Shown here one piece after another: positions 5,534-63,080 of a stretch of 64,000 nucleotides of DNA. The notes under the pieces are model-generated. The model was not told the origin of the DNA, ran no database searches, and saw only the letters and a list, made by a program, of their open reading frames with translations. Position 1 is the first letter of the stretch. Every line of letters begins with the position of its first letter. The DNA is taken from positions 329,879 through 393,878 of the forward strand of contig CAUTSC010000001.1 in assembly GCA_963541275.1 (NCBI GenBank). The letters are read 5' to 3'. The stretch is from an uncultured Pseudomonadota bacterium (GTDB taxonomy: Bacteria > Pseudomonadota > Alphaproteobacteria > Rs-D84 > CACZYB01). Position numbers and translations under genes: made by a program.

Positions 5534-6955
5534 ATGTTTAAATTTATAGTTTTGATTTTGTTTTTTCTTTCTGTAAATGTTAAGGCAGAAGAAATAAAAG
5601 ATGCCAATAATATAGAGGCAGGTAAACTTGTAGCAACAACAATGAAAGCTGTTGAAAATAAAGAAAGTGAGAAAAAAGAAGAAAAACAAGAAGCAGAAAA
5701 CACAAAAGATAAAAAGGATACAATAGAATTAAAACATGAAGATTTTTTGCCTCTTGCAAAAGTATTGATTTCCAAAAAAAAATATGATGAAGCAGAAAAA
5801 ATTTTAACAATTGAACCATATAATGTTTTGGAATTGGAACTTGAAAGATTAAATTTACTGGCAGAAGTTTATAAGGGTAAAGGACAGCTTGATAAAGCAG
5901 AAGAAACCTATCGTTTTATTTTGGATTTTCAACCAAATCTTACTCCTATCAGGTTGAAACTTGCAGAAATTGCCTTTATGAAGGGAAATTTTGTAAGTGC
6001 AGATTATCATTTTAAATTGGTGCTTACAGATAAGGATGTTCCAGATACAGTAAGGCAAAATATAAATATGGTAAGATATCTTATAAGAAAAAATAAAAAT
6101 TGGAATGTTTGGGTTGATTTTGGAATTGCTCCAGATACCAATTTCAATAATACATCTTATAATAAATGTATAACTATTTTAGGGTTGGAACTTTGTAATA
6201 AAAGCGAAGAAGAGTTGGTTATAGGTTTTAACACTGCCGCTGGTTTAAACTATGAACTTAAATTTGGAAATAATTGGCAGATAAGAAATGAGTTTATAAT
6301 TCAAAAAAACACTTATAATAAGCCAGAATACAATGATTTATATCTTGCTTATAATGTTGGGCCAAAATTTGTTCATAAAAGAGGAGAAACTTTTTTATCA
6401 CTTACAACAAACAAACAATATTTTGATGGTAAACCATACAGCTATTCCATAGGTGGGCGTTTATCAAACACTTTTGATATAACAGATAAATTATCCAATT
6501 CTGTGTCAATTGCATACAGCCCAATTTATTTCAGTGAATCACCAGAACAAGATAAAAAAATCTATTCTGCAAATTATGCTTTCTCTTATAGTTTGAATGC
6601 TTCGCAATATTTAATGTTAAAAAACAGATATAATTGGAACAAACCAAATAATCCAAAATATATTGGAAATAACAGTAAAAGTTTTTCAATTGGTTTTGGT
6701 ACAAGTTTATTTTGGGGATTTTCCGCTTATATGGAACCAAGCATAACATTTACAGACTACAGCAAAGCATTTTTTTCAAAAGGAAAAAGAAAAGATATAA
6801 CTTATAAATATGATTTATCATTATCTAATAATAAAATTTCATTTTGGGGATTTACACCAAATATAGGTATTGGTTATATTTATAATACTTCTAACAGCAG
6901 TATAAAAGAATATAAAAAACCAACATTTGAATTTAGTATCAATCAAAGATTATAA
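5534..6955 (+). CDS. outer-membrane protein: N-terminal TPR-like helical region plus C-terminal beta-barrel (Slam/DUF560-like or YaiO-like architecture)
   Basis: There is a signal peptide, MFKFIVLILFFLSVNVKA. The N-terminal 180 aa or so are helical and repeat-like (TPR-like). The C-terminal 290 aa are rich in alternating aromatic/polar residues, Asn/Tyr/Gly, and end in a terminal F-x-x-x-x-x-x motif (FEFSINQRL), typical of OM barrels. Confidence 0.5.
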   Translation: MFKFIVLILFFLSVNVKAEEIKDANNIEAGKLVATTMKAVENKESEKKEEKQEAENTKDKKDTIELKHEDFLPLAKVLISKKKYDEAEKILTIEPYNVLELELERLNLLAEVYKGKGQLDKAEETYRFILDFQPNLTPIRLKLAEIAFMKGNFVSADYHFKLVLTDKDVPDTVRQNINMVRYLIRKNKNWNVWVDFGIAPDTNFNNTSYNKCITILGLELCNKSEEELVIGFNTAAGLNYELKFGNNWQIRNEFIIQKNTYNKPEYNDLYLAYNVGPKFVHKRGETFLSLTTNKQYFDGKPYSYSIGGRLSNTFDITDKLSNSVSIAYSPIYFSESPEQDKKIYSANYAFSYSLNASQYLMLKNRYNWNKPNNPKYIGNNSKSFSIGFGTSLFWGFSAYMEPSITFTDYSKAFFSKGKRKDITYKYDLSLSNNKISFWGFTPNIGIGYIYNTSNSSIKEYKKPTFEFSINQRL

Positions 6956-7011: not shown

Positions 7012-7088
7012 GGGTGATTAGCTCAGTTGGCTAGAGCATCTCGTTTACACCGAGGAGGTCTGGGGTTCGAGTCCCTAATCACCCACCA
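7012..7088 (+). tRNA. tRNA-Val (anticodon TAC)
   Basis: GGGTGATTAGCTCAGTTGGCTAGAGCATCTCGTTTACACCGAGGAGGTCTGGGGTTCGAGTCCCTAATCACCCACCA folds into a cloverleaf, with anticodon loop TTTACAC and an encoded CCA. Confidence 0.9.
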
Positions 7089-7294: not shown

Positions 7295-7909
7295 ATGAGT
7301 TTAAGATTGAAATCAAAATATAAAATTGACAGACGATATGGTGTTAACACTTGGGGTAGACCAAAATCACCATTTAATAAAAGAAAATATAAACCTGGGC
7401 AACATGGTCCTGTATCTCGTGGCAGAAGAACCGATTATGGTATGCAGCTTGCTGCAAAACAATTATTAAGAGGTTATTATGGAACTATCACAGAAAAAAA
7501 ATTCCATGCTTATTATAAAGAAGCTATGAGAAGAAAAGGTGATACCGCAAGCAATATTATTGCACAGCTTGAATCTCGTCTTGATACAATAGTATATAGA
7601 GCAAATTTTGTGCCAACTGTTTTTGCCGCAAGACAAGTTGTAAGTCATAAACATATTTTAGTTAATGGTAAAACAGTAAATATTCCATCTTACCAAGTAA
7701 AAGTTGGTGATGTTATTACATTGAAACAAAATGCTCGTGAAATCCCTATGGTGGTTCAAGTGAGAAATAATAAAGAAAGAGAAGTGCCAGATTATATTTC
7801 AGTAAATGATAAATATGAAGCAACTTTTTTAAGAGTGCCAGCAATAGACGAAGTTCCGTATCCAGTTAAAATGGAACCAAACTTGGTTGTTGAATTTTAT
7901 TCACGATAA
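7295..7909 (+). CDS. rpsD: 30S ribosomal protein S4
   Basis: [38 protein letters not shown]... plus [35 protein letters not shown] (S4 domain). Confidence 0.95.
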
Positions 7910-7931
7910 TTTATTTTTTATACCTTTGCAT

Positions 7932-7967
7932 AAAACAAGGAATCTTAATAGTTCCTTGTTTTTTTAT
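7932..7967 (+). terminator. rho-independent terminator after rpsD
   Basis: A hairpin AAACAAGGAA-tcttaatag-TTCCTTGTTT followed by a T7 run. Confidence 0.6.
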
Positions 7968-8546
7968 GAAAAAATTTATTCCAAAAATTATTAATTTAGG
8001 ATTTTATAAAAGAGATCTTTTAAATATAGATTCATTCAAATATTTTTTTGTAAAAATATTCGCCAGAAACGTAGTATCTTAAATATATAATGAATAGGTG
8101 AAGTTTAATTTAAAAAATCATACAAATATTTTGTGATAACCAAAATATTTGCCAATTTTTGTTTATAAAAATTATATATAAATTTTTTTAGATAATTTTA
8201 TGAGTTTAAGAATTCTTGTTTAGTAAATAAATGGGGATATTTTTTTATATGTTATTTTAATATGTGTCATTGAAATATTTTATTTAAGCAACATATTTAA
8301 CAATTTTTGCTTGCAAAAATTATATAACAATACAGATTTTTTTCATTGTAAGATGTATTTTATTTAATCTATATGCATTCAAATATCATTATTGTAAAGA
8401 TATTTGCCAATTTTTACAAAGTAAAAATTATATAAATATAAATAAGTACATATATTTACTTTCCAATCATCCCTAGATATTTTTGCTCTTTCTATCTATA
8501 TACTCTCCCTTTTCTTCCACGTCTCAAAAAATCGCAGATTTCTGCC

Positions 8547-8626
8547 ATTTTGAAAATTTTTATAAAAAAATGTAAAAAATTTGCATTTTGTTCTTGACTT
8601 TTAAAAAATAATGATTATACTATAAT
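8547..8626 (+). repeat. about 80-nt intergenic repeat element, copy 1 (carries a consensus sigma70-like promoter)
   Basis: TTGAAAATTTTTATAAAAAAATGTAAAAAATTTGCATTTTGTTCTTGACTTTTAAAAAATAATGATTATACTATAAT. About 80 % identical to 19878..19957. Confidence 0.55.
8594..8621 (+). promoter_or_regulatory. candidate orphan sigma70 promoter (TTGACT-16 nt-TATACT)
   Basis: It has a perfect -35 TTGACT, a 16-nt spacer and a -10 TATACT within the repeat element. No ORF follows; a small hairpin, GGGTAaagtaTACCC, lies at about 8636-8650. Confidence 0.4.
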
Positions 8627-8715
8627 TAACCAAAGGGTAAAGTATACCCAAAATTTCCAGAGAATAGATTTTTTATTTGCTATGGTGCGGACGCAGCTCG
8701 TTGTTGCTATGTGAA

Positions 8716-8790
8716 TTTTATTAAATATTTCATCCCAATATTTTTCTAAAGAAAAATGTTGGCCGCAAACTTTGTTTGCAAAAAAAACTA
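8716..8790 (+). repeat. direct repeat copy A (ATTTCATCCCAATATTTTTCTAAAGAAAAATGTTGG...TTTGCAAAAA)
   Basis: It pairs with 8945..9020 (about 85 % identity). Confidence 0.5.
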
Positions 8791-8944
8791 GAGAATAGAA
8801 AAATTTTAAAAAAAAGTAAAAAAAATTACTTTCCCTCTTGAAATTTAAAAATCGGGTACATATATATAAAATACGGCAGGGGTGAAGTCTGCAAAAATCA
8901 ATGATAGGGATTTATTATTTCAAAAAATTACTAGTTTGTGTGAT

Positions 8945-9020
8945 ATGAATTTAAATATATCATTCCAATATTTTTCTAAAGAAAAATGTTGGCGAGTTTT
9001 TGCTTGCAAAAATTATACTT
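8945..9020 (+). repeat. direct repeat copy B (ATATCATTCCAATATTTTTCTAAAGAAAAATGTTGG...TTGCTTGCAAAAATT)
   Basis: It pairs with 8716..8790. Confidence 0.5.
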
Positions 9021-9069
9021 TAATTTTATCATGAATGTGGATAGAAGGGTCTGAAAGCCCTATTAAATG

Positions 9070-9190
9070 GTGTGCTGTAAAGCATAGTACAAAAAGGGTA
9101 TATTCCTACTGTAATGGTAGGAAGGTGTAGGAATATTCAAATACTATACACTATTTCCATTTAATATAGTTTTCAGCTTCCTATCGCTAA
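9070..9190 (+). promoter_or_regulatory. conserved leader / operator-like element, copy 1 (TAGGAA/TTCCTA repeat array) upstream of cassette 1
   Basis: ...TTCCTACTGTAATGGTAGGAAGGTGTAGGAATATTCAAATACTATACACTATTT....CTTCCTATC is near-identical to 61849..61952. It contains an inverted repeat TTCCTAC/GTAGGAA and four TAGGAA half-sites. Confidence 0.55.
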
Positions 9191-9221
9191 TGATTAGTGA
9201 TGAAAAACAAGGAGAGACTAT

Positions 9222-9707
9222 ATGAAAAAATCAAAAATTAAGTATGCGATTTTACTTGGGTTGTTATTGTATAAATCCAGTTCTTTTGCTGCAAGCGATG
9301 CAACAAAAAAGCTTATACATGAAACCCTTGCAAAATATGGAATAAGTTCCGGCGGGAAAGAAGTATGCGGTACGGGACGAGAGCCAGAATATAACAATCA
9401 AACGGGAGTGGTAAAATGTAAAAACAATGCTGATGGCGACAGCAATAACTGCTGGGATGCAAGTTCCAGATTATGTAAAGAATGTCCCGTCGGTACAATA
9501 GTTAGTTCAAAAGATCACATAACCTGCAGACAAATTGTATGTCCAGATGGATTTGAGCTGAAAGAAATTATAAACAATGAATGTCCAGATGGTTTTGAAA
9601 TCAAATGGTTTGATGAAACTTGTGATGCAGAAACCTACGGCTTTAATGAAGTTATGGCAACAAAAAATTACACCACACAATCAACAAATTGTAAAAACAT
9701 AAAATAA
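9222..9707 (+). CDS. Cys-rich secreted protein, cassette 1 gene A (conserved N-module ATKKLIHETLAKYGISSGGKEVCG plus variable CPxG[FYM]E[LI] repeats)
   Basis: It has a signal peptide, MKKSKIKYAILLGLLLYKSSSFA, and a GGAGAG RBS. The N-terminal 24 aa after the signal are almost identical to the 61966 ORF. The C-terminal half is Cys-rich with CPDGFEL/CPDGFEI repeats. Confidence 0.7.
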   Translation: MKKSKIKYAILLGLLLYKSSSFAASDATKKLIHETLAKYGISSGGKEVCGTGREPEYNNQTGVVKCKNNADGDSNNCWDASSRLCKECPVGTIVSSKDHITCRQIVCPDGFELKEIINNECPDGFEIKWFDETCDAETYGFNEVMATKNYTTQSTNCKNIK

Positions 9708-9718
9708 AGGAGGAGAAT

Positions 9719-10576
9719 ATGAAAAAACATAAAATAAGTAAATTAGCATTGTTAACAGGATTGTTAATGATAAACACAAACACAAAAGGTTTCTATCAAT
9801 GCGTTCCTAAACAGGATTGGTTTAAGAAACAATATTATATCTTGACATTAGAGGATAAATTTAGAGTTGCTAAAACACAGATAAATAATCATAATCTGTG
9901 GATATTAGTTGAAGAAAATAAAACAAGTGGGAGTTTAGGTATCGGGATATATAAAGTAATAGTTGCAGGTGGGTGTGGAGGTGGTGGTGGAAGTGCAGGG
10001 AAAGATTATGAGGAGTATAATGTGTATTATTATCGTAGTGGTGGTGCTGGAGCAGTAGGGGAAATATCAATGAAACTATTTTATATTGATAGGTTAATGT
10101 CATATGCTGCCTGTATAGGATTAAAGGGTAGAAATGGAAGTGTTGGAGCTGGGGATGGAGGAAGTGGTGGTGGAGGAGGTGCAGGGTCTGCATTTAAAAT
10201 TAATGATTTAGAAATAATGGTTTCTGGAGGAGGTGGTGGAGGAGGTGCTTCTTCTCCTCATGGGGGAGGTGGTGGCGGTGGTGGCGGATATGGATGTGAA
10301 ATAGGAGGAAGAGGAGGATGGGGAAATAATAGTTATGATCATGTAAGTGGAGGAAATATTGTTAGAGATAGATATTTAGGTGGTGCTAAAGGGATAGATG
10401 GAGGAGAAGATTATGGAAACAATGGTGGAAGTGGTGGAAAAGGTGGTAGACCATGTGCAAATGGGGGTGTTGGAGGTACAGATTTGGGAAGTGGAGTAGG
10501 TGGTAATAGTTGTGCTACAAAAGGAAATGGCAATACTGGTGATGGTTATGTTAAAATTTACAAATATATTGGATAA
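9719..10576 (+). CDS. Gly-rich secreted protein, cassette 1 gene B
   Basis: It has a signal peptide and the conserved FYQCVPK..W start. Long GGGGGGG/GGSGG tracts give a local GC spike from GGN codons. The conserved C-terminus is GDGYVKIYKYIG. It is a paralog of 62523..63080. The RBS is AAGGAGGAG. Confidence 0.7.
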   Translation: MKKHKISKLALLTGLLMINTNTKGFYQCVPKQDWFKKQYYILTLEDKFRVAKTQINNHNLWILVEENKTSGSLGIGIYKVIVAGGCGGGGGSAGKDYEEYNVYYYRSGGAGAVGEISMKLFYIDRLMSYAACIGLKGRNGSVGAGDGGSGGGGGAGSAFKINDLEIMVSGGGGGGGASSPHGGGGGGGGGYGCEIGGRGGWGNNSYDHVSGGNIVRDRYLGGAKGIDGGEDYGNNGGSGGKGGRPCANGGVGGTDLGSGVGGNSCATKGNGNTGDGYVKIYKYIG

Positions 10577-10608: not shown

Positions 10609-12793
10609 ATTCCATATTCATAAGTATAACACAGCTAAGGGGTGGTAGGGTTATATTGATTGAAAATTGTTTATTGTGCCATGGGGTGTTTTCTGTTTCT
10701 ATTGTCATTCGGTTTTTAACTCCACTGCCACCATACATAATGTCATCGCTGTTAAAAATTTCTTTTAAAATTGTATCTTTTGTGATACCAACTCTGTAAT
10801 CATATCTTACAACCGGAGTCATATTTACAACTATTATAACAAAATTATTTTTGCTGCTGTCATATCTTATATAACTGAAAATTTGATTATTTATATCATC
10901 TCCACAAATCCATTCAAAAAGATCTTTATTAGAGTCACCCTGATATAAACATTTATTGGTTGTATAAAGTAAATTTAAATCTTTTACCAGGTTTTGGATT
11001 CCTTTGTGTTTTGGATCATTTAATAAATGCCAATCAAGACTTTGTTCTTTATTCCATTCGTTATATTGACCAAACTCCCCCCCCATAAATAATAATTTTT
11101 TTCCAGGGTAAGACCACATGAAAGATAAAAATAACCTTAAATTTGCAAATTTTTGCCATTCATCACCTGGCATTTTTGAAAGCAAACTTTGTTTTCCATA
11201 AACAACTTCATCATGAGAAATTGGAAGCACAAAATTTTCACTGAACGCATAATGAAATGTAAATCCAATTAAATGTTGATGATATTTTCTGTAAACTGGA
11301 TCTTTTGTAAAATAGGAAAGTATGTCATGCATCCAACCCATATTCCATTTATAACCAAAACCCAGTCCTCCACAATTAACTGGTTTTGAAACATCTTTCC
11401 AACTGGTGGATTCTTCGGCATATGATGCAAAATGTGGACATTTTTCATAAAGTAAAATGTTGGTGTTTTTTAAAAAATCTATTGCTTCTAAATTATCGTG
11501 CCCACCATATTTATTTGGCGTCCATTCACCTGGACTTTTTGAATAGTCAAGATATAACATAGATGCAACCGCATCAAAGCGAAGTCCGTCAACTTTATAT
11601 TCTGTTAACCAAAAAAGGGCAGAGGAAAATAAAAAATTAACAACTTCTTTTTTAGAGTAGTCATAAATTTTTGTACCCCAATCTTTATGTTCACCTTTTT
11701 TAGTATCCGCATATTCATAAAGTGGTGTTCCATCAAAATTAGCAAGTCCGTGCGGATCCTTTGGAAAATGTGCCGACACCCAATCAAGTATAACGGCAAT
11801 ACCAGCCTTATGACATTCATTTATAAAATATTTAAAATCTGTTGGTGTACCATATCTGGATGTTGGGGCAAACATGCCAATTGTTTGATAACCCCATGAA
11901 TCATCAAATGGATATTCCATAACAGGCATTATTTCAATATGTGTGAAACCCATATATTTAACATAAGGGATAAGTTCGTTTGCAAGATCGCGATAAGTAA
12001 GCCAAAAATAACCATCCTTTTTTCGCCAAGAACCAAGATGAACTTCGTAAATTGAGATAGGTTTTGAAATGGAGTTAATAGTGTCTTTTTTTAGATTCCA
12101 TTCTGGTGTTTCATCCCAATTAAAATTTTTTATATCCCAAACAATAGAAGCATTTTTTGGTCTCATTTCTTGAAAAAAACCAAAAGGATCAGTTTTAAAT
12201 GGAAGTAGTTTTTTATTTTTATCCAAGAGTTCAAATTTGTAAAGCTCACCATCACCAATGTCAGGAATAAATATATCCCACAAACCACTTGTTAAATGTT
12301 TTCTCATAACATTAACACGCCCATCCCAATTATTAAAATTGCCAATCACACTTACCCTGTGTGCGTTTGGTGCCCAAAGTGCGAATGAAACACCCTTTAT
12401 TCCATTAAGGGTTATTGTTTGCGCACCAAGTTTGTTAAATAATTCAAAATGACGACCTTCACAAAATAAATAATCATCTATATCGCCAATTATGGATGGA
12501 AAATTATAAACATCATTTTTAATTGTTTCATTATTATTATAATCAATGATTTTTAATTTATAATTAGTGATTGCTTCTGTAAATTGTAGTTCAAATAATC
12601 CAAACTCGTGAATTTTTTGCATTTGAAATTCAGTGTTGTTTTTGATTATAAAAATTGATTTTGCAGTTGGAATAAAAACTCTTATCACACAAGCTGTATC
12701 AAAATTATGAAGTCCCAAAACAGAAAATGGATCAGTATGAAAACCATTTACAATAGCATCAATTTCTTGATTGTTTAAAACTTGTGCTGACAA
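10607..12793 (-). CDS. glgB: 1,4-alpha-glucan (glycogen) branching enzyme
   Basis: A 728-aa protein with GH13 catalytic motifs: GLRFDAV, HFPKD, YAESHD-like, and the GFGYKWNMGWMHD block typical of GlgB. Confidence 0.95.
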   Translation of the reverse strand: MSAQVLNNQEIDAIVNGFHTDPFSVLGLHNFDTACVIRVFIPTAKSIFIIKNNTEFQMQKIHEFGLFELQFTEAITNYKLKIIDYNNNETIKNDVYNFPSIIGDIDDYLFCEGRHFELFNKLGAQTITLNGIKGVSFALWAPNAHRVSVIGNFNNWDGRVNVMRKHLTSGLWDIFIPDIGDGELYKFELLDKNKKLLPFKTDPFGFFQEMRPKNASIVWDIKNFNWDETPEWNLKKDTINSISKPISIYEVHLGSWRKKDGYFWLTYRDLANELIPYVKYMGFTHIEIMPVMEYPFDDSWGYQTIGMFAPTSRYGTPTDFKYFINECHKAGIAVILDWVSAHFPKDPHGLANFDGTPLYEYADTKKGEHKDWGTKIYDYSKKEVVNFLFSSALFWLTEYKVDGLRFDAVASMLYLDYSKSPGEWTPNKYGGHDNLEAIDFLKNTNILLYEKCPHFASYAEESTSWKDVSKPVNCGGLGFGYKWNMGWMHDILSYFTKDPVYRKYHQHLIGFTFHYAFSENFVLPISHDEVVYGKQSLLSKMPGDEWQKFANLRLFLSFMWSYPGKKLLFMGGEFGQYNEWNKEQSLDWHLLNDPKHKGIQNLVKDLNLLYTTNKCLYQGDSNKDLFEWICGDDINNQIFSYIRYDSSKNNFVIIVVNMTPVVRYDYRVGITKDTILKEIFNSDDIMYGGSGVKNRMTIETENTPWHNKQFSINITLPPLSCVILMNME

Positions 12794-38936: not shown

Positions 38937-39230
38937 AGTGGGGATAGTTGAAGAACTGCTGTATATTATAGGTATATATAGAGGAAAGTCTGGACACCTC
39001 AAGAGAAAGATAACGGATAACGTCCGTCTGTAGTAATACGAGGATTAGAGCCACAGAGACGAGTCTGGAAACAGAGTGAAACGGGCAATCTCTATCTGGT
39101 GCAAGACTAAATAGAAGGGTGTTGAGTGCTCTTGTGAACCCTTGGGTGAGTCGCATGAAATATGTAGTAATATATATTCAAGATAAATAGTTCTTTTTAA
39201 CAGAATCCAGCTTACAGACTATCCCTTGTA
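38937..39230 (+). ncRNA. rnpB: RNase P RNA (reduced type A)
   Basis: P4 5' strand is GAGGAAAGTCTGGAC and P4 3' strand is ACAGAATCCAGCTTA, with a compensatory CTGG/CCAG change versus the consensus CCGG/CCGG. P1 pairs GGGATAGT (38941) with ACTATCCC (39218). Internal ...ACAGAGTGAAACGGGCAAT... and GGTGCAAGACTAAATAGAAGGGTG blocks match conserved regions. It lies in a gap with no ORF. Confidence 0.7.
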
Positions 39231-42765: not shown

Positions 42766-42841
42766 GGGTGATTAGCTCAGTCGGTAGAGCAACTGACTTT
42801 TAATCAGTGGGTCACAGGTTCGAATCCTGTATCACCCACCA
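42766..42841 (+). tRNA. tRNA-Lys (anticodon TTT)
   Basis: GGGTGATTAGCTCAGTCGGTAGAGCAACTGACTTTTAATCAGTGGGTCACAGGTTCGAATCCTGTATCACCCACCA folds into a cloverleaf, with anticodon loop CTTTTAA and an encoded CCA. Confidence 0.9.
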
Positions 42842-59512: not shown

Positions 59513-59589
59513 TGGTCGGGGAGACAAGATTTGAACTTGCGGCACCTAGTTCCCAAAACTAGTACTCTACCAGACTGAGCTACTCCCCG
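59513..59589 (-). tRNA. tRNA-Pro (anticodon TGG)
   Basis: The reverse complement CGGGGAGTAGCTCAGTCTGGTAGAGTACTAGTTTTGGGAACTAGGTGCCGCAAGTTCAAATCTTGTCTCCCCGACCA folds into a cloverleaf with anticodon loop TTTGGGA. Confidence 0.9.
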
Positions 59590-59654: not shown

Positions 59655-61763
59655 TTGATTTTAATAATATTTTATTTTAATTTAAACAAAATGTTAAGAT
59701 TGTCAAGATACATCACTTATACTTCAAAACAAATTGAAAAAGAATATTTTCAATATGTCTTTTTTATTCCTGTTTTAATCTCTATTGGTATTTTAATTTA
59801 CTTTAATCTTAATTTTGAACCCAATATTCACAATACATTTTTGATTTTGTTATTAAGCATTTTTTCTCTGTTCATTGATTTGCCAAAAAGAAAAAAATAT
59901 TTTATTTTTAAAGTTTTAAAATTTGCACTTTTATTTATTATTTTGGGATTTTTCATTATTACAATCAAAGCCAATTTTTTAAATACATTTTTACTAAATA
60001 AAAAAGCAAATGATAAAATTATTACTGGAAGGGTTATAAGGATAGAACAAAATCAAAAATATAATAAGATAGTTGTTGATAATGTAAAAATTTTAAATAT
60101 TGGGATTTATTCTGTTTTAAATAAAATCAAAAAATTGCAGATAAATTTTAATACTTCACATAAACTGCCAGAAATAGGTAAAGATATTATTGTAAAAGCA
60201 GATATTAGACCCTTTTTATATCCTATCACAAATAAAAGTTTTAATTTCCGTCGTTATTATTATTTTAATGAAATATCAGGCAAAGCTTTTCTAAAATCAA
60301 ATTGGCAATATAATTTACAACAAAAAGATAACAATATTTTTGATAAGATTATTTTCAAAATTTACAAACTACGTCAAAAGATAAATGAAAAAATTTCATC
60401 AATAATAAAAAACGATAATAAAGAAATTATTATGTCAATTATGACAGGTAAAAGATATTTTGAAAATAAAATAACAGAACAATATAAAGCTGCAGGTGTC
60501 AGTCATATTTTATCTATTTCTGGGCTTCATTTTGGAATTATAATGGGATTTATCTTTTTTATTATAAGATATTTTTTGCTACTTTTCTCATATATTCAAA
60601 ATAAATATGATATAAAAAAATTAACAGCAATTATCACATTTTTAATAAGCATAATTTATTTAATTATAAGTGGAGCACGTATTCCAACAATTCGTGCATT
60701 TATAATGTTTTCTTTTATGATGCTTGCAATTTTAACAGATAAAAATCCAGTATCAATAAGGATAGTGGTGTTAAGTATGTTAATAATACTTTTGTTATAT
60801 CCAGAATCTTTAATAACCGCAGGTTTTCAATTATCATTCATTGCAACAATAACAATATTAAAATTTTTTGAAATAAAAGATCTATGGATGATAAATATAA
60901 ATAATCATACGGGATTTCATAAATACCTATTTAAAAGTATCAACTTTGTAAATGGAATTATTTTATCATCAATTGCGGTGTCTATTTTTACAATGCCAAT
61001 AATAATTTATCATTTTAATACAATACAATTATATGGATTTTTAGGAAATTTACTCATTGTGCCAATTTTCACATTTTTTGTAATGCCAACAATTTTACTA
61101 ACTTTTATTTTTATGCCATTTAATTTTTATAAAATATTTTTATATCTACTTGATTTTGAAATAAATATTATAAATTTTTTAACAGAAATTATTTCAAAAT
61201 TTCCATTTACTAATATCAAATTTTATGGCATTTCAAATATATCACTTGTTTTAATATATCTTGGGATTGCTATAAGGTTGATTTTTAAAACTAACCTAAA
61301 AAATATGGGATATGTTTTTATTTTTATTGGAATGAGTTGCAATTTTTTTAATAAAACCCCAGATATAATAATAAACAAATTTGGAAATATTTTTGCTATT
61401 AAACAAGATAATAAAATACACATTTTAAATTTAAGTAATTATAAAATAAAAGAATATGAAATTGCTGAATATAAAAAAGTTTTTAAAAGTAATATAGTTG
61501 TAAATACAGATAAAAAAAACTGGATAATAAATAACACAAAAATTGCATTTATAAATGATAACAAAGATTATGAAATTGCATGCAAAGAAAATACTTTAAT
61601 TTTTATAACTAACCCAAAATATACGATGAATTTTATTTGTAATAAAAGAGTGTTTGATAATATTTTTTCTCTTACTACTAAAGGCGCAGAATTTTACATA
61701 AACAATAATAAATATAAAGTAAAACCAATTATTGATATAGACAATAAAAGTATTTGGGATTAA
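59655..61763 (+). CDS. comEC: ComEC/Rec2-family DNA internalisation channel protein (no C-terminal MBL domain)
   Basis: A DUF4131-like N-domain and a competence domain with AAGVSHILSISGLHFGII, on a polytopic membrane protein. The start may be the internal Met at 59691. Confidence 0.8.
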   Translation: MILIIFYFNLNKMLRLSRYITYTSKQIEKEYFQYVFFIPVLISIGILIYFNLNFEPNIHNTFLILLLSIFSLFIDLPKRKKYFIFKVLKFALLFIILGFFIITIKANFLNTFLLNKKANDKIITGRVIRIEQNQKYNKIVVDNVKILNIGIYSVLNKIKKLQINFNTSHKLPEIGKDIIVKADIRPFLYPITNKSFNFRRYYYFNEISGKAFLKSNWQYNLQQKDNNIFDKIIFKIYKLRQKINEKISSIIKNDNKEIIMSIMTGKRYFENKITEQYKAAGVSHILSISGLHFGIIMGFIFFIIRYFLLLFSYIQNKYDIKKLTAIITFLISIIYLIISGARIPTIRAFIMFSFMMLAILTDKNPVSIRIVVLSMLIILLLYPESLITAGFQLSFIATITILKFFEIKDLWMININNHTGFHKYLFKSINFVNGIILSSIAVSIFTMPIIIYHFNTIQLYGFLGNLLIVPIFTFFVMPTILLTFIFMPFNFYKIFLYLLDFEINIINFLTEIISKFPFTNIKFYGISNISLVLIYLGIAIRLIFKTNLKNMGYVFIFIGMSCNFFNKTPDIIINKFGNIFAIKQDNKIHILNLSNYKIKEYEIAEYKKVFKSNIVVNTDKKNWIINNTKIAFINDNKDYEIACKENTLIFITNPKYTMNFICNKRVFDNIFSLTTKGAEFYINNNKYKVKPIIDIDNKSIWD

Positions 61764-61848
61764 TATAAAAATATTTTTCTTGTATAAAAATCTTTTTAAT
61801 ATTATCATAAAATTTAAAGAAAGGGTGTGACAACCCATGTACTAATAA

Positions 61849-61952
61849 AGTGCTGAATAGCACAAAGTGTTTTCCTACTGCAAGGTAGGAAGGTATAGGA
61901 ATATCCAATACTATACACTATTTTAGTACATAGTTGTCAACTTCCTATCAAA
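61849..61952 (+). promoter_or_regulatory. conserved leader / operator-like element, copy 2 (TAGGAA/TTCCTA repeat array) upstream of cassette 2
   Basis: GTGCTGAATAGCAC hairpin, then TTCCTACTGCAAGGTAGGAAGGTATAGGAATATCCAATACTATACACTATTT...CTTCCTATC. Confidence 0.55.
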
Positions 61953-61965
61953 AAAGGAGGATTAG

Positions 61966-62502
61966 ATGAAAAACTATATAAAAAATCATGGCAAAATTTT
62001 GCTGTTTGCTACGGGGATTTTATTTTCGCACAAAGCATTTTCAGCAAGTGAGGCAACTAAGAAGTTGATACACGAAACCCTTGCAAAATATGGAATAAGT
62101 TCCGGTGGTAAGGAAGTTTGCGGGGGTGATGAAGAACCAATTTGTAATGAACCAGGTTGCAAAGTTAAATGCAACAGGGTAGATGCAACAACTGGATTAA
62201 AGGCAAACAATTTCTGGTCGCCAAGTGATAGGTTATGTAAATCTTGTCCGGTTGGAACAATACTCAACAAAACCTCATTCCAAAGTTGTAATCAAGTTGT
62301 GTGTCCAGAAGGGACAACTGGGATAAAAGTGAGTGGTGGAAATTGTCCCACTGGGATGGATTTATTTGCTCCCAGCAAAGGAATCTGCCCCGAGGGATAT
62401 GAACTTATCAAAATTACAAATGGAAAATGCCCGGATGGGATGGAGCTTATTGATTTAAGAAACAACTGCCCATCAGGATATGAAATGTTTAAACAATCAT
62501 AA
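61966..62502 (+). CDS. Cys-rich secreted protein, cassette 2 gene A
   Basis: A signal peptide, then SEATKKLIHETLAKYGISSGGKEVCG (identical to cassette 1 apart from the first residue, which is D in cassette 1 and E here). The repeats are CPEGYEL, CPDGMEL, CPSGYEM and CPTGMDL. Confidence 0.7.
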   Translation: MKNYIKNHGKILLFATGILFSHKAFSASEATKKLIHETLAKYGISSGGKEVCGGDEEPICNEPGCKVKCNRVDATTGLKANNFWSPSDRLCKSCPVGTILNKTSFQSCNQVVCPEGTTGIKVSGGNCPTGMDLFAPSKGICPEGYELIKITNGKCPDGMELIDLRNNCPSGYEMFKQS

Positions 62503-62522
62503 TAAAAGGAAAGGAGAAAACT

Positions 62523-63080
62523 ATGATGAAAAAACAAATAAGTAAAATAAGTTTATTAAGTGCAATGCTTGTTGCAACTATGGTAAACGCCCAAGAATTC
62601 TACACCTGCGTTCCAAAAAGGAATTGGTGGAGTGATCTTATAAAAGATGGAGTAGAAAAAGGAGTTACAGAAGGTAAGAAAGAAATAGAAGAAAATAAAT
62701 GGGAAACTATTATAGATCTTACTACGGACAGTAATCCTGTTGAATTAAAACAGGCATTGTTGCCAGGCAAATACAGAGTGACAGTTGCTGTTGCAGGAGT
62801 AGGTATGGACGGAGAGAAGAAAGTAAGAATATTTACCCTTGATAAGAAAGAAGAATTTAAAGCATGTATAGAAGTAAGTGGAGGAAATGGGGGAGATAAA
62901 TATAGTATTGGTAAAGCAACATATATTGGTGGTGGCGGTGGGGGTGGTGGGGGAAGTTATTTTGAAATAGGTGAAGTTAAACTTTTATTAAAAGGTGGTG
63001 ACGGAGAAGATGCCACTCAAGAAAAAGCAGGTAAAGGTGCCAGTCCAGATGGATATATTAAAATAGAAAAATGGAAATAG
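62523..63080 (+). CDS. Gly-rich secreted protein, cassette 2 gene B
   Basis: A signal peptide, EFYTCVPK..W, a GGGGGGGGG tract, and a C-terminal PDGYIKIEKWK (cf. GDGYVKIYKYIG in cassette 1). Confidence 0.7.
   Translation: MMKKQISKISLLSAMLVATMVNAQEFYTCVPKRNWWSDLIKDGVEKGVTEGKKEIEENKWETIIDLTTDSNPVELKQALLPGKYRVTVAVAGVGMDGEKKVRIFTLDKKEEFKACIEVSGGNGGDKYSIGKATYIGGGGGGGGGSYFEIGEVKLLLKGGDGEDATQEKAGKGASPDGYIKIEKWK

Follow-up and report, generated by a model that had tools for sequence, protein, structure and literature searches.

Why a tightly packed, AT-rich genome should keep more than 1 kb of DNA with no evident gene is the question raised by the interval downstream of rpsD in a 64-kb genome fragment of approximately 28% GC from an uncultured Rs-D84 alphaproteobacterium (contig CAUTSC010000001.1; the whole analysed fragment is termed here the window). 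Between the end of rpsD (7295–7909) and position 9222, where the next open reading frame (ORF) of at least 60 amino acids (aa) begins, lie 1312 nucleotides (nt; 7910–9221) that contain no ORF above this threshold in any frame, the longest one inside being 50 aa. This block is the largest ORF-free gap of the window, the next being 339 nt (which contains a tRNA-Val gene) and the median 57 nt, so that the long ORF-free block noticed in an initial annotation of the same DNA is real. We propose that the block is an expanded 5′ control region, organized in three layers, of the two-gene operon 9222–10576, and give this reading a probability of roughly 0.6. Its functional part is probably a promoter, a leader RNA and perhaps two upstream repeat units termed X1 and X2, the rest probably being duplication debris. 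We consider it very likely that the leader is indeed a structured RNA that regulates in cis.

A conserved promoter and leader RNA upstream of the cassette

The operon downstream of the block, hereafter the cassette (9222–10576, + strand), comprises two genes. The product of the first (9222–9707) is a 161-aa Cys-rich protein that begins with a hydrophobic, signal-like segment, and that of the second (9719–10576) is a 285-aa Gly-rich protein with a similar N-terminus; a Pfam scan found no domain in either. Homologues of the 161-aa protein numbered 39, all in metagenome-derived records of ENA or NCBI, and genomic context was recovered for eight of them (L081–L090). Together with the window's own cassette and a paralogous one at 61 kb, these gave ten distinct cassette contexts (window 9k and 61k, L081–L084, L086 and L088–L090). 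Wherever an upstream gene is present in the recovered sequence, it differs in each context, and approximately 200 nt before the start codon align in all ten, comprising a promoter followed by a conserved RNA of about 150 nt. The predicted cassette promoter, P1 (9004–9032, +), consists of a −35 element TTGCAA (9004–9009), a 17-nt spacer and a −10 element TATCAT (9027–9032), and its position and sequence are kept across all aligned upstream regions (TTGTAT/TTGCAT ... TATCAT/TATTAT/TACTAT). Judged from its sequence, 9004–9032 would be a sigma-70-type promoter, and the transcription start sites used here are likewise predicted. A MerR-type reading of the region (TTGGCG, 19 nt, TATACT) was dropped, as the alignments show TTGCAA-17-TATCAT to be the conserved promoter.

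The last 180 nt of the block (9040–9221), which the initial annotation had missed, are a conserved structured RNA. The leader proper (9040–9188, +) folds much better than shuffled controls (z = −3.7). RNAalifold, applied to a sequence-only MAFFT alignment of nine sequences, returned a multi-helix structure with compensatory changes at 10 of 32 pairs; the long-range helix P2, for instance, occurs among the members as TGACAAC/GTTGTCA, TGAAAGC/GTTTTCA, TCAGAAC/GTTCTGA and TTAGCGA/TCGCTAA. In the window copy the elements are a 5′ hairpin (GGG 9047–9049 with CCC 9058–9060), P2 (9052–9058 with 9169–9175), P3 (9061–9066 with 9161–9166), a variable hairpin P4, P5 (CCTAC 9105–9109 with GTAGG 9117–9121), a hairpin P6 with a GGAATATTCAAATA loop, and two alternative helices, B1 (GGTAGGAAG 9116–9124 with CTTCCTATC 9177–9185) and B2 (ACTAT 9150–9154 with ATAGT 9166–9170).

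The initial annotation had proposed comparing the rpsD-downstream region among relatives. We took the 80 closest rpsD loci from a species-representative genome collection; these belong to uncultured gut Alphaproteobacteria, with RpsD identity of at most 87% and approximately 60% for 'Ca. Enterousia', a clade equivalent to the order Rs-D84 whose genomes are mostly smaller than 1 Mb and 81–94% coding (PMC12306168). No DNA similarity to the block was found in the 80 rpsD-downstream regions. The neighbours of rpsD vary even among the five closest relatives, and the clade as a whole shows little conservation of gene order; since the closest relatives do not share rpsD synteny, a direct orthologous comparison at this position is impossible. 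A covariance model of nine sequences, R1, returned the 11 expected leader copies at 113–150 bits and, unexpectedly, about 16 weaker full-length matches in Enterousia-type rpsD loci. With a second model, R2, built from 25 sequences, 1.34 Mb of related Rs-D84 ('Ca. Enterousia'-like) loci yielded 33 copies, or approximately one per 40 kb of sampled loci, 13 of the 33 coordinate sets lying outside the training alignment. The match in L090 (121.6 bits) and 12 further matches outside the training coordinates show that R2 generalizes. The window leader (150 bits with R1, 120.6 bits with R2) and the paralogous leader (128.8 and 113 bits, respectively) are training sequences of both models.

The promoter and leader thus precede all ten distinct homologous cassettes recovered, including the paralogous cassette of the window (61764–63080, +). 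The latter begins directly after the stop codon of ORF 59655–61763 and carries the same promoter arrangement as at 9 kb, a leader at 61816–61952 and no X module; its genes encode a 178-aa Cys-rich protein (61966–62502) and a 185-aa protein (62523–63080). With a conserved promoter and a covariation-supported leader before every homologous cassette examined, the suggestion in the initial annotation that the block might be a regulatory hub for the downstream cassette is supported. Two side observations concern the second gene of the cassette: it differs among homologous cassettes (for example, 360 aa in L084), and in the window it contains long poly-Gly tracts, with local GC skew of up to +0.73 and a GC content of 45% compared with 28% for the genome.

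Two mutually exclusive folds of the leader

The 3′ arm of P5, GGUAGGAAGG (GGUUGGAGG in the Enterousia type), is perfectly complementary to the 3′ tail of the leader, CUUCCUAUC (CCUCCAACC in the Enterousia type), with which it forms B1. Since P5 and B1 share this strand and cannot coexist, the RNA has two evolutionarily maintained states. State A was paired in 93.9% of cells across 25 sequences, compared with 41–46% when the partners were slid, and compensatory changes occurred at 21 of 32 pairs; among its helices, P2 was 99.4% paired (5 of 7 pairs compensated), P3 90% (6 of 6), P5 96% and P6 95%. As modelled, P2 is a pseudoknot-like helix of the 5′-hairpin loop with a distal strand. State B was tested as a structure outside the covariance model: B1 was paired in 100% of cells, with four covarying pairs, and B2 (ACUAU:AUAGU) in 96.7%, CUAU:AUAG covarying to CAAU:AUUG, that is, from U-A to A-U. 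RNAalifold predicted B1 independently on isolated 3′ halves, and a triple change, CUCCUGA / GGUCAGGAGG / CCUCCUGACC, was seen in the new family matches. The local GGG-N8-CCC 5′ hairpin was 97% paired, with G-C to A-U changes; a long-range helix of the first model, also numbered P1 (AGGG:UCCU), was paired in only 85% of cells and was abandoned as the weaker of the two.

A candidate expression platform was apparent in the Enterousia-type copies, of which approximately 21 of 29 carry a terminator hairpin that begins within the last 4–7 nt of the motif, as detected by a terminator script. In these copies the tail continues into (A)ACCACC-loop-GGUGGUU-U(4–8), so that the 5′ arm of the intrinsic terminator overlaps B1. 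On sequence grounds P5, B1 and this hairpin look like the anti-antiterminator, antiterminator and terminator of a classical attenuator or riboswitch. The window copy is followed by a different start region (9183–9224, +), made up of an optional hairpin ATCGCTAAT-G-ATTAGTGAT (9183–9201), an A-rich linker, a Shine–Dalgarno (SD) sequence AAGGAG (9209–9214) and the start codon at 9222. A hairpin of this type, then an A-rich linker and an SD, occurs in 5 of the 10 distinct window-type leaders, and as no T-tract follows the hairpin at 9183–9201, it is not an intrinsic terminator.

We infer the direction of regulation, what X and the leader do, and the history of the decayed copies along the following lines. 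In the first layer (9004–9221), the sigma-70-type promoter would start a 5′ untranslated region (UTR) of approximately 185 nt, whose first 150 nt or so would be the lineage-wide two-fold RNA. In state A the 5′-hairpin loop would pair with the distal strand (P2), alongside P3, P5 and P6, leaving the anti-SD-like tail CUUCCUAUC free; in state B, GGUAGGAAG would pair with the tail (B1) and ACUAU with AUAGU (B2). The free tail would serve as the 5′ arm of the terminator in Enterousia-type relatives, such that state A would permit termination and state B prevent it. In the window lineage the output would instead be on translation or mRNA stability, as the tail could pair with the SD; for the window copy, such pairing of the free CUUCC tail would be possible but weak.

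Several points weigh against this scheme. The alignments behind the covariation figures had been fitted to the covariance model, and the lower pairing of long-range P1 relative to the GGG:CCC hairpin makes the exact topology of state A provisional. The terminator script found an intrinsic terminator in none of the 11 window-type copies, 9040–9188 included. For the window copy, moreover, the minimum-energy fold (−51.2 kcal/mol) is that of state A, in which the SD is unpaired, and state B is approximately 13 kcal/mol less stable.

Even so, the leader shares several properties with terminator/antiterminator leaders such as riboswitches, T-boxes and protein-dependent attenuators, namely a conserved multi-helix domain in the 5′ UTR, exclusive helices that share one strand (P5 and B1), a 3′ strand that in Enterousia-type copies is also the 5′ arm of a terminator, and ORF-less copies that would be detected as small RNAs. 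It differs from them in that no riboswitch or leader family of Rfam matches it and the window's own copy has lost the terminator. Furthermore, unlike riboswitches of metabolic pathways, it stands before genes for uncharacterized Cys-rich signal-like and small helix-turn-helix (HTH) proteins, and its density of about one per 40 kb of sampled loci is unusually high for one class of leader.

Module X and its eroded copies

The upstream part of the block holds the short repeats that the initial annotation had described; they exist, and all are confined to the block. Of the 28-mer CCAATATTTTTCTAAAGAAAAATGTTGG there are exact copies at 8735 and 8965 and no others (0 expected by chance); TTTTTGCTTGCAAAAATTATA has two exact copies, at 8304 and 8997, and one with three mismatches at 8156 (0.13 expected); and GCCAATTTTT...AAAAATTATATA was found at 8150 and 8404. 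What had been read as separate short families resolves into six copies of a single module of approximately 70 nt (alignment A7), termed U0 (8020), U1 (8109), U2 (8257), U3 (8366), U4 (8717) and U5 (8952). Similarly, the 75-nt direct repeat and the promoter-bearing 80-nt element are real, but both belong to one unit of approximately 235 nt, X, that is present twice (X1, 8559–8796; X2, 8803–9037) and whose 3′ ends are U4 and U5. The TTGCTTGCAAAAATTATA repeat named in the initial annotation is the −35 region of the cassette promoter between its T and A tracts; the U5 copy of this region is that of the predicted cassette promoter itself, and in U1–U3 the −10 region is not recognizable any more.

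Both X units are intact and lie on the + strand. X1 has a predicted promoter TTGACT-16-TATACT (8594–8621), a 5′ hairpin GGGTAAAGTATACCC (8635–8649) and a second hairpin, termed hairpin 1 (8735–8762), followed by GCAAAC-TTT-GTTTGC. X2 has a predicted promoter with TTGAAA (8838–8843), a 17-nt spacer and TATATA (8861–8866), a 5′ hairpin at approximately 8875–8892 and hairpin 1 at 8965–8992 followed by CGAGTTTTTG, its 3′ end merging with the cassette promoter. X1 is homologous to X2 and to segments of two related contexts, L084 1108–1342 and L090 approximately 318–432. The X promoter is common to X1, X2, L084/L085 and L090 (TTGAAA or TTGACT, 16–17 nt, TATATA/TATACT/TATATG), and the 5′ hairpin, with a consensus around GGGGTGAAGTGTATCC, is at a fixed position; the middle part carries large indels, L084 being 44 nt shorter. 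In L084/L085 and L090, whose cassette proteins are approximately 54–61% identical to the window's, X sits immediately upstream of the cassette promoter, the L090 segment being shorter. Hairpin 1 is a 12-bp stem, CCAATATTTTT...AATATTGG, that was 91% paired with four compensated pairs and holds through length changes. Its stability falls from −12.7 kcal/mol in X2 (z −4.1) and −11.9 in X1 to −8.3 in U1 and −3.7 in U0, and in U2 it is lost.

The eroded copies U0–U3 (8018–8436, +; U0 8020–8091, U1 8109–8179, U2 8257–8329, U3 8366–8433) keep only hairpin 1 and the −35 part, the 70-nt module being hairpin 1 plus T5-GCTTGCA-A5 (the −35 region) and TTATATA. Their nhmmer E-values of 2e-7 to 2e-11 are those of training copies, which match by construction. 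Their GC content is 17.1%, compared with 25.5% for the other intergenic DNA of the window. Outside 8018–9022, neither the remainder of the window nor 1.3 Mb of relatives contained a further copy of the module. In the three-layer arrangement, X1 and X2 (second layer, 8559–9037) would act as additional upstream promoters, whose transcripts would either stop at hairpin 1, giving RNAs of approximately 110–135 nt, or read into the leader. The third layer (8018–8436) would comprise four older copies of the 3′ part of X that have lost their promoters, fallen to 17% GC and are losing the hairpin; U0–U3 would thus be the debris of repeated local tandem duplication, the oldest furthest upstream and decaying under AT-biased mutation.

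Here too, some observations stand on the opposing side of the balance. Although constant in place and orientation, X was found in only 3 of the 10 distinct contexts, which means that the cassette can do without it. Hairpin 1 is missing from the L090 copy, which argues against it as an obligatory terminator, and its T-run comes only after a 4-nt gap. Whereas promoter-like hexamers are conserved in all four X copies, a terminator-like hairpin was flagged for X2 only (8965–8992), not for X1.

One alternative is that all of 7970–9000 is non-functional debris, produced by slippage or unequal recombination at the T5/A5-flanked promoter region, with function confined to the proximal promoter and leader, and that X1 and X2 look intact because they are recent. 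X1 and X2 do share a 43-nt stretch at 95% identity, decay rises steadily toward the 5′ end, X is absent from 7 of the 10 contexts and the block is unique to this locus. However, L084/L085 and L090 also carry X despite the divergence of their cassette proteins, and in them the promoter hexamers and the 5′ hairpin have been retained amid diverging sequence, which argues for selection on at least one X copy. In addition, 1 kb of dead DNA would be unexpected in a lineage with such small and densely coding genomes (<1 Mb, 81–94% coding; PMC12306168), and we regard this explanation as unlikely.

Another alternative, which seems to us rather unlikely though somewhat less so, is that X1 and X2, and perhaps also the ORF-less leader-like copies of relatives, are independent genes for trans-acting small RNAs, with their own promoters, ends at hairpin 1 and base-pairing on other mRNAs, such that the block is a small-RNA cluster and not an operon control region. 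The X promoters are kept in four copies from three lineages, the 5′ and 3′ hairpins are conserved around a variable middle, X2 hairpin 1 plus T5 was flagged as terminator-like with a stable hairpin (z about −4), and relatives contain tandem ORF-less leader copies with terminators (L018 and L013). With their own conserved promoters and the terminator-like hairpin of X2, X1 and X2 are a possible source of small RNAs. Yet X always lies immediately upstream of the same cassette in the same orientation and never elsewhere, the L090 copy, lacking hairpin 1, runs directly into the cassette promoter, the X1 hairpin has no adjacent U-tract, and comparison of X with the leader by eye revealed no consistent complementarity (no target prediction was made).

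The repeats could also be recombination or replication sites, such as attC-like cassette boundaries, origin iterons or a MITE/REP family. This would agree with the different upstream neighbour of the cassette in each context, with the imperfect palindromes formed by the modules and with the integron association, in Xanthomonas, of sRNA-Xcc1, the nearest Rfam family (10.1101/2025.06.18.660453). The module's absence from the rest of the window and from 1.3 Mb of relatives, however, speaks against a dispersed repeat, the clade generally shows little conservation of gene order, and no integrase was seen in the annotated part of the window, although no search was aimed at integrases. The module spacing (89, 148, 109, 351 and 235 nt) is irregular and shows no CRISPR-like periodicity. 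A replication origin was rejected: DnaA boxes are not enriched (30 compared with 27.6 expected window-wide, with one 1-mismatch box in the block), and GC skew shows no switch, the cumulative skew rising on both sides. Taken as a whole, recombination or replication sites are a very improbable explanation.

The initial annotation had further offered a degraded gene remnant, or leader peptides (MLAANFVCKKN and MLASF...), as readings of the block. Apart from the length of the block and two short ATG-initiated ORFs at 8757 and 8987, nothing speaks for a protein-coding gene in decay or for a group of ORFs encoding leader peptides, and we find this reading barely credible. Every frame has 21–29 stop codons per 376 codons, a six-frame Pfam search gave no match at E ≤ 1, and tblastn with 315 local and family proteins (39 family members, the window ORFs and the proteins of seven related cassette loci, L081–L084, L086, L088 and L089) gave nothing meaningful, the full protein database not having been searched. 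The ATG codons lie in the 3′ arm of hairpin 1, inside its 12-bp stem and without an SD, and they are not conserved among module copies, being present only in U4 and U5 and replaced by ATA in five others (U0–U3 and L084). What decays in this block is a set of non-coding repeat copies, not a gene.

Other candidates were also rejected. No model used identified X as a diverged or truncated leader, as the R1 matches obtained with filters off reached at most 5 bits, R2 gave no match and hidden Markov models of the leader 3′ half gave E ≥ 0.39; a likeness of the L084 X to the leader core seen by eye (CAAGG..AAGGTGT..ATACTA) was dropped for want of statistical support. A 'hairpin 2' (AATTTTTGC-TT-GCAAAAATT), considered as a structure or operator, was paired in 55% of cells with an inconsistent register, and at its position other cassettes have T5-CTTGTAT-A5, a −35 hexamer between T and A tracts. 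The only metagenome match to hairpin 1, in L091 (1195–1242, on an ERZ1024349 contig), is due to chance in an unrelated, higher-GC contig; the end of that contig is Illumina adapter sequence, AGATCGGAAGAGCACACGTCTGAACTCCAGTCAC, an assembly contaminant.

Distribution of the leader and its relation to known RNAs

The genes that follow the leaders mostly encode small Cys-rich proteins whose N-termini are signal-like and which lack a Pfam domain (two have sub-threshold Flg_new matches), besides a few small HTH proteins and ABC transporters. To judge from these sequences the genes suggest no ligand, and riboswitch ligand binding would be a possibility only. Eleven Enterousia-type copies are not followed within 200 nt by an ORF that has an SD, and would therefore give only an RNA of approximately 150 nt. 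Four of these lie just 3′ of rpsD and convergent with it (L064 10769–10885, L037 10921–11034, L043 10773–10884 and L058 4750–4864, all on the − strand), with the terminator hairpin directly seen in L064 and L037; this looks like a conserved small-RNA locus at the same position as the window's block. Others of the eleven belong to tandem pairs on the − strand of L018 (323–456 and 69–201) and L013 (5372–5504 and 5163–5292), where the first copy of each pair has a terminator and no ORF. The second copy of L013 precedes a small HTH ORF, and the available L018 sequence stops 68 nt past the second copy. This arrangement parallels the X1–X2–leader layout of the window. Three full-length copies (107 bits) were also present on predicted viral contigs of IMG/VR (L092 12034–12175, L093 8454–8590 and L094 782–923), adjoining phage lysin-, methyltransferase- and phospholipase-D-like genes (judged by the look of the sequence, with no library scan) and preceding an ABC-transporter-like ORF and a 316-aa protein whose N-terminus is hydrophobic.

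The Rfam search for small-RNA candidates that the initial annotation recommended found no family at gathering score (Rfam 15) in the block, the window leaders or eight Enterousia loci. Matches in the block at E ≤ 10 (an S15-Flavobacteria leader on the minus strand, PreQ1 and others) were dismissed as noise on A/T-rich promoter sequence. The closest family was sRNA-Xcc1 (RF02221), an 88-nt RNA of Xanthomonas campestris seen on Northern blots as a discrete RNA of approximately 100 nt (PMC2996969), which precedes symE in Xanthomonas integron cassettes and an ORF in APSE phage (10.1101/2025.06.18.660453; 10.1101/2020.03.17.996009). In its consensus, a 9-bp G-rich/C-rich outer stem encloses two hairpins, of which the first has AAUA in its loop, and an ACC tail follows. 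State B of the leader resembles it (GGUUGGAGG ... GAAUAUA ... CUAU..AUAG ... CCUCCAACC-ACC), although shape alone is no proof of homology. Sub-threshold matches of 28.8 bits to a leader copy (L073) and 37.5 bits to a shorter element (L027) were obtained, against a gathering score of 53, and the part aligned in these matches is exactly state B, with the outer stem, both hairpins and the ACC tail. Like the leader, sRNA-Xcc1 is upstream of and co-oriented with a gene (10.1101/2025.06.18.660453; 10.1101/2020.03.17.996009), and its discrete RNA of approximately 100 nt (PMC2996969) is what a terminated leader would give. It lacks the 5′ half of the leader (5′ hairpin and P2–P5) that makes the alternative fold, and it occurs in different phylum-level hosts and with different downstream genes. 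As the threshold was not reached and window positions 7850–9300 gave no match at E ≤ 10, the likeness is a lead and not evidence of membership. The L027 element (10929–11019) reads GUCGGGGGG...CUCCCCGAC and then a terminator, CCGUCA..UGACGGUUUUU, upstream of a secreted protein; it is not found by R1 or R2 and, to judge from its sequence, these genomes may thus have a second subtype that resembles Xcc1. L027 also contains a long perfect palindrome (12499–12696) with sub-threshold similarity to Wolbachia sRNA 46 on both strands (47 bits; gathering score 65).

Alphaproteobacteria also have the 'cuckoo' or alpha-r small RNAs, which occur in several copies per genome, sometimes in tandem, and carry a C/U-rich anti-SD-like motif (CCUCC or CUUCC). 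The leader is likewise multi-copy, sometimes tandem, equipped with an anti-SD-like motif and alphaproteobacterial. In the Rfam scan, however, it matched no model at threshold, its anti-SD-like motif lies in the strand of a covarying helix and not in a hairpin loop, and most of its copies are 5′ leaders of ORFs.

More broadly, and as a tentative proposal that we ourselves think doubtful, the leader might represent a previously undescribed class of ligand- or protein-responsive switch, present in approximately 20 copies per sub-1-Mb Rs-D84 genome and co-ordinating Cys-rich, apparently secreted proteins; its ORF-less copies would be small RNAs, sRNA-Xcc1 a truncated relative, and the X array a record of its spread by local duplication. 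If so, the orphan 'sRNA' known from integrons of Xanthomonas and from APSE phage would have to be read instead as a leader acting in cis, which the sub-threshold sRNA-Xcc1 link makes a testable idea. Genomes smaller than 1 Mb and 81–94% coding would be expected to have minimal regulatory capacity (PMC12306168); the distribution of the leader suggests that in Rs-D84 bacteria one RNA-based regulon serves the repertoire of cell-surface or secreted proteins. The leader thus offers a concrete target for the discovery of a ligand or protein partner in uncultured organisms and, since it is absent from Rfam 15, adding the motif would improve the annotation of these metagenome-assembled genomes.

A few features of the window lie outside the control region proper. 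At its 5′ edge, directly after the rpsD stop codon (7909), the sequence reads as an intrinsic terminator of rpsD (7932–7965, +), with the stem AACAAGGAA / TTCCTTGTT followed by a T-run. The gene at 5534–6955, second upstream from the block, encodes a Slam-like protein (surface lipoprotein assembly modifier, PF04575, E 4e-23) that could play a part in exporting the Cys-rich proteins. The ordinary RNAs of the window are RNase P RNA class A (38940–39230, 207 bits), tRNA-Val(TAC) (7012–7088), tRNA-Lys(TTT) (42766–42841) and tRNA-Pro(TGG) (59513–59589).

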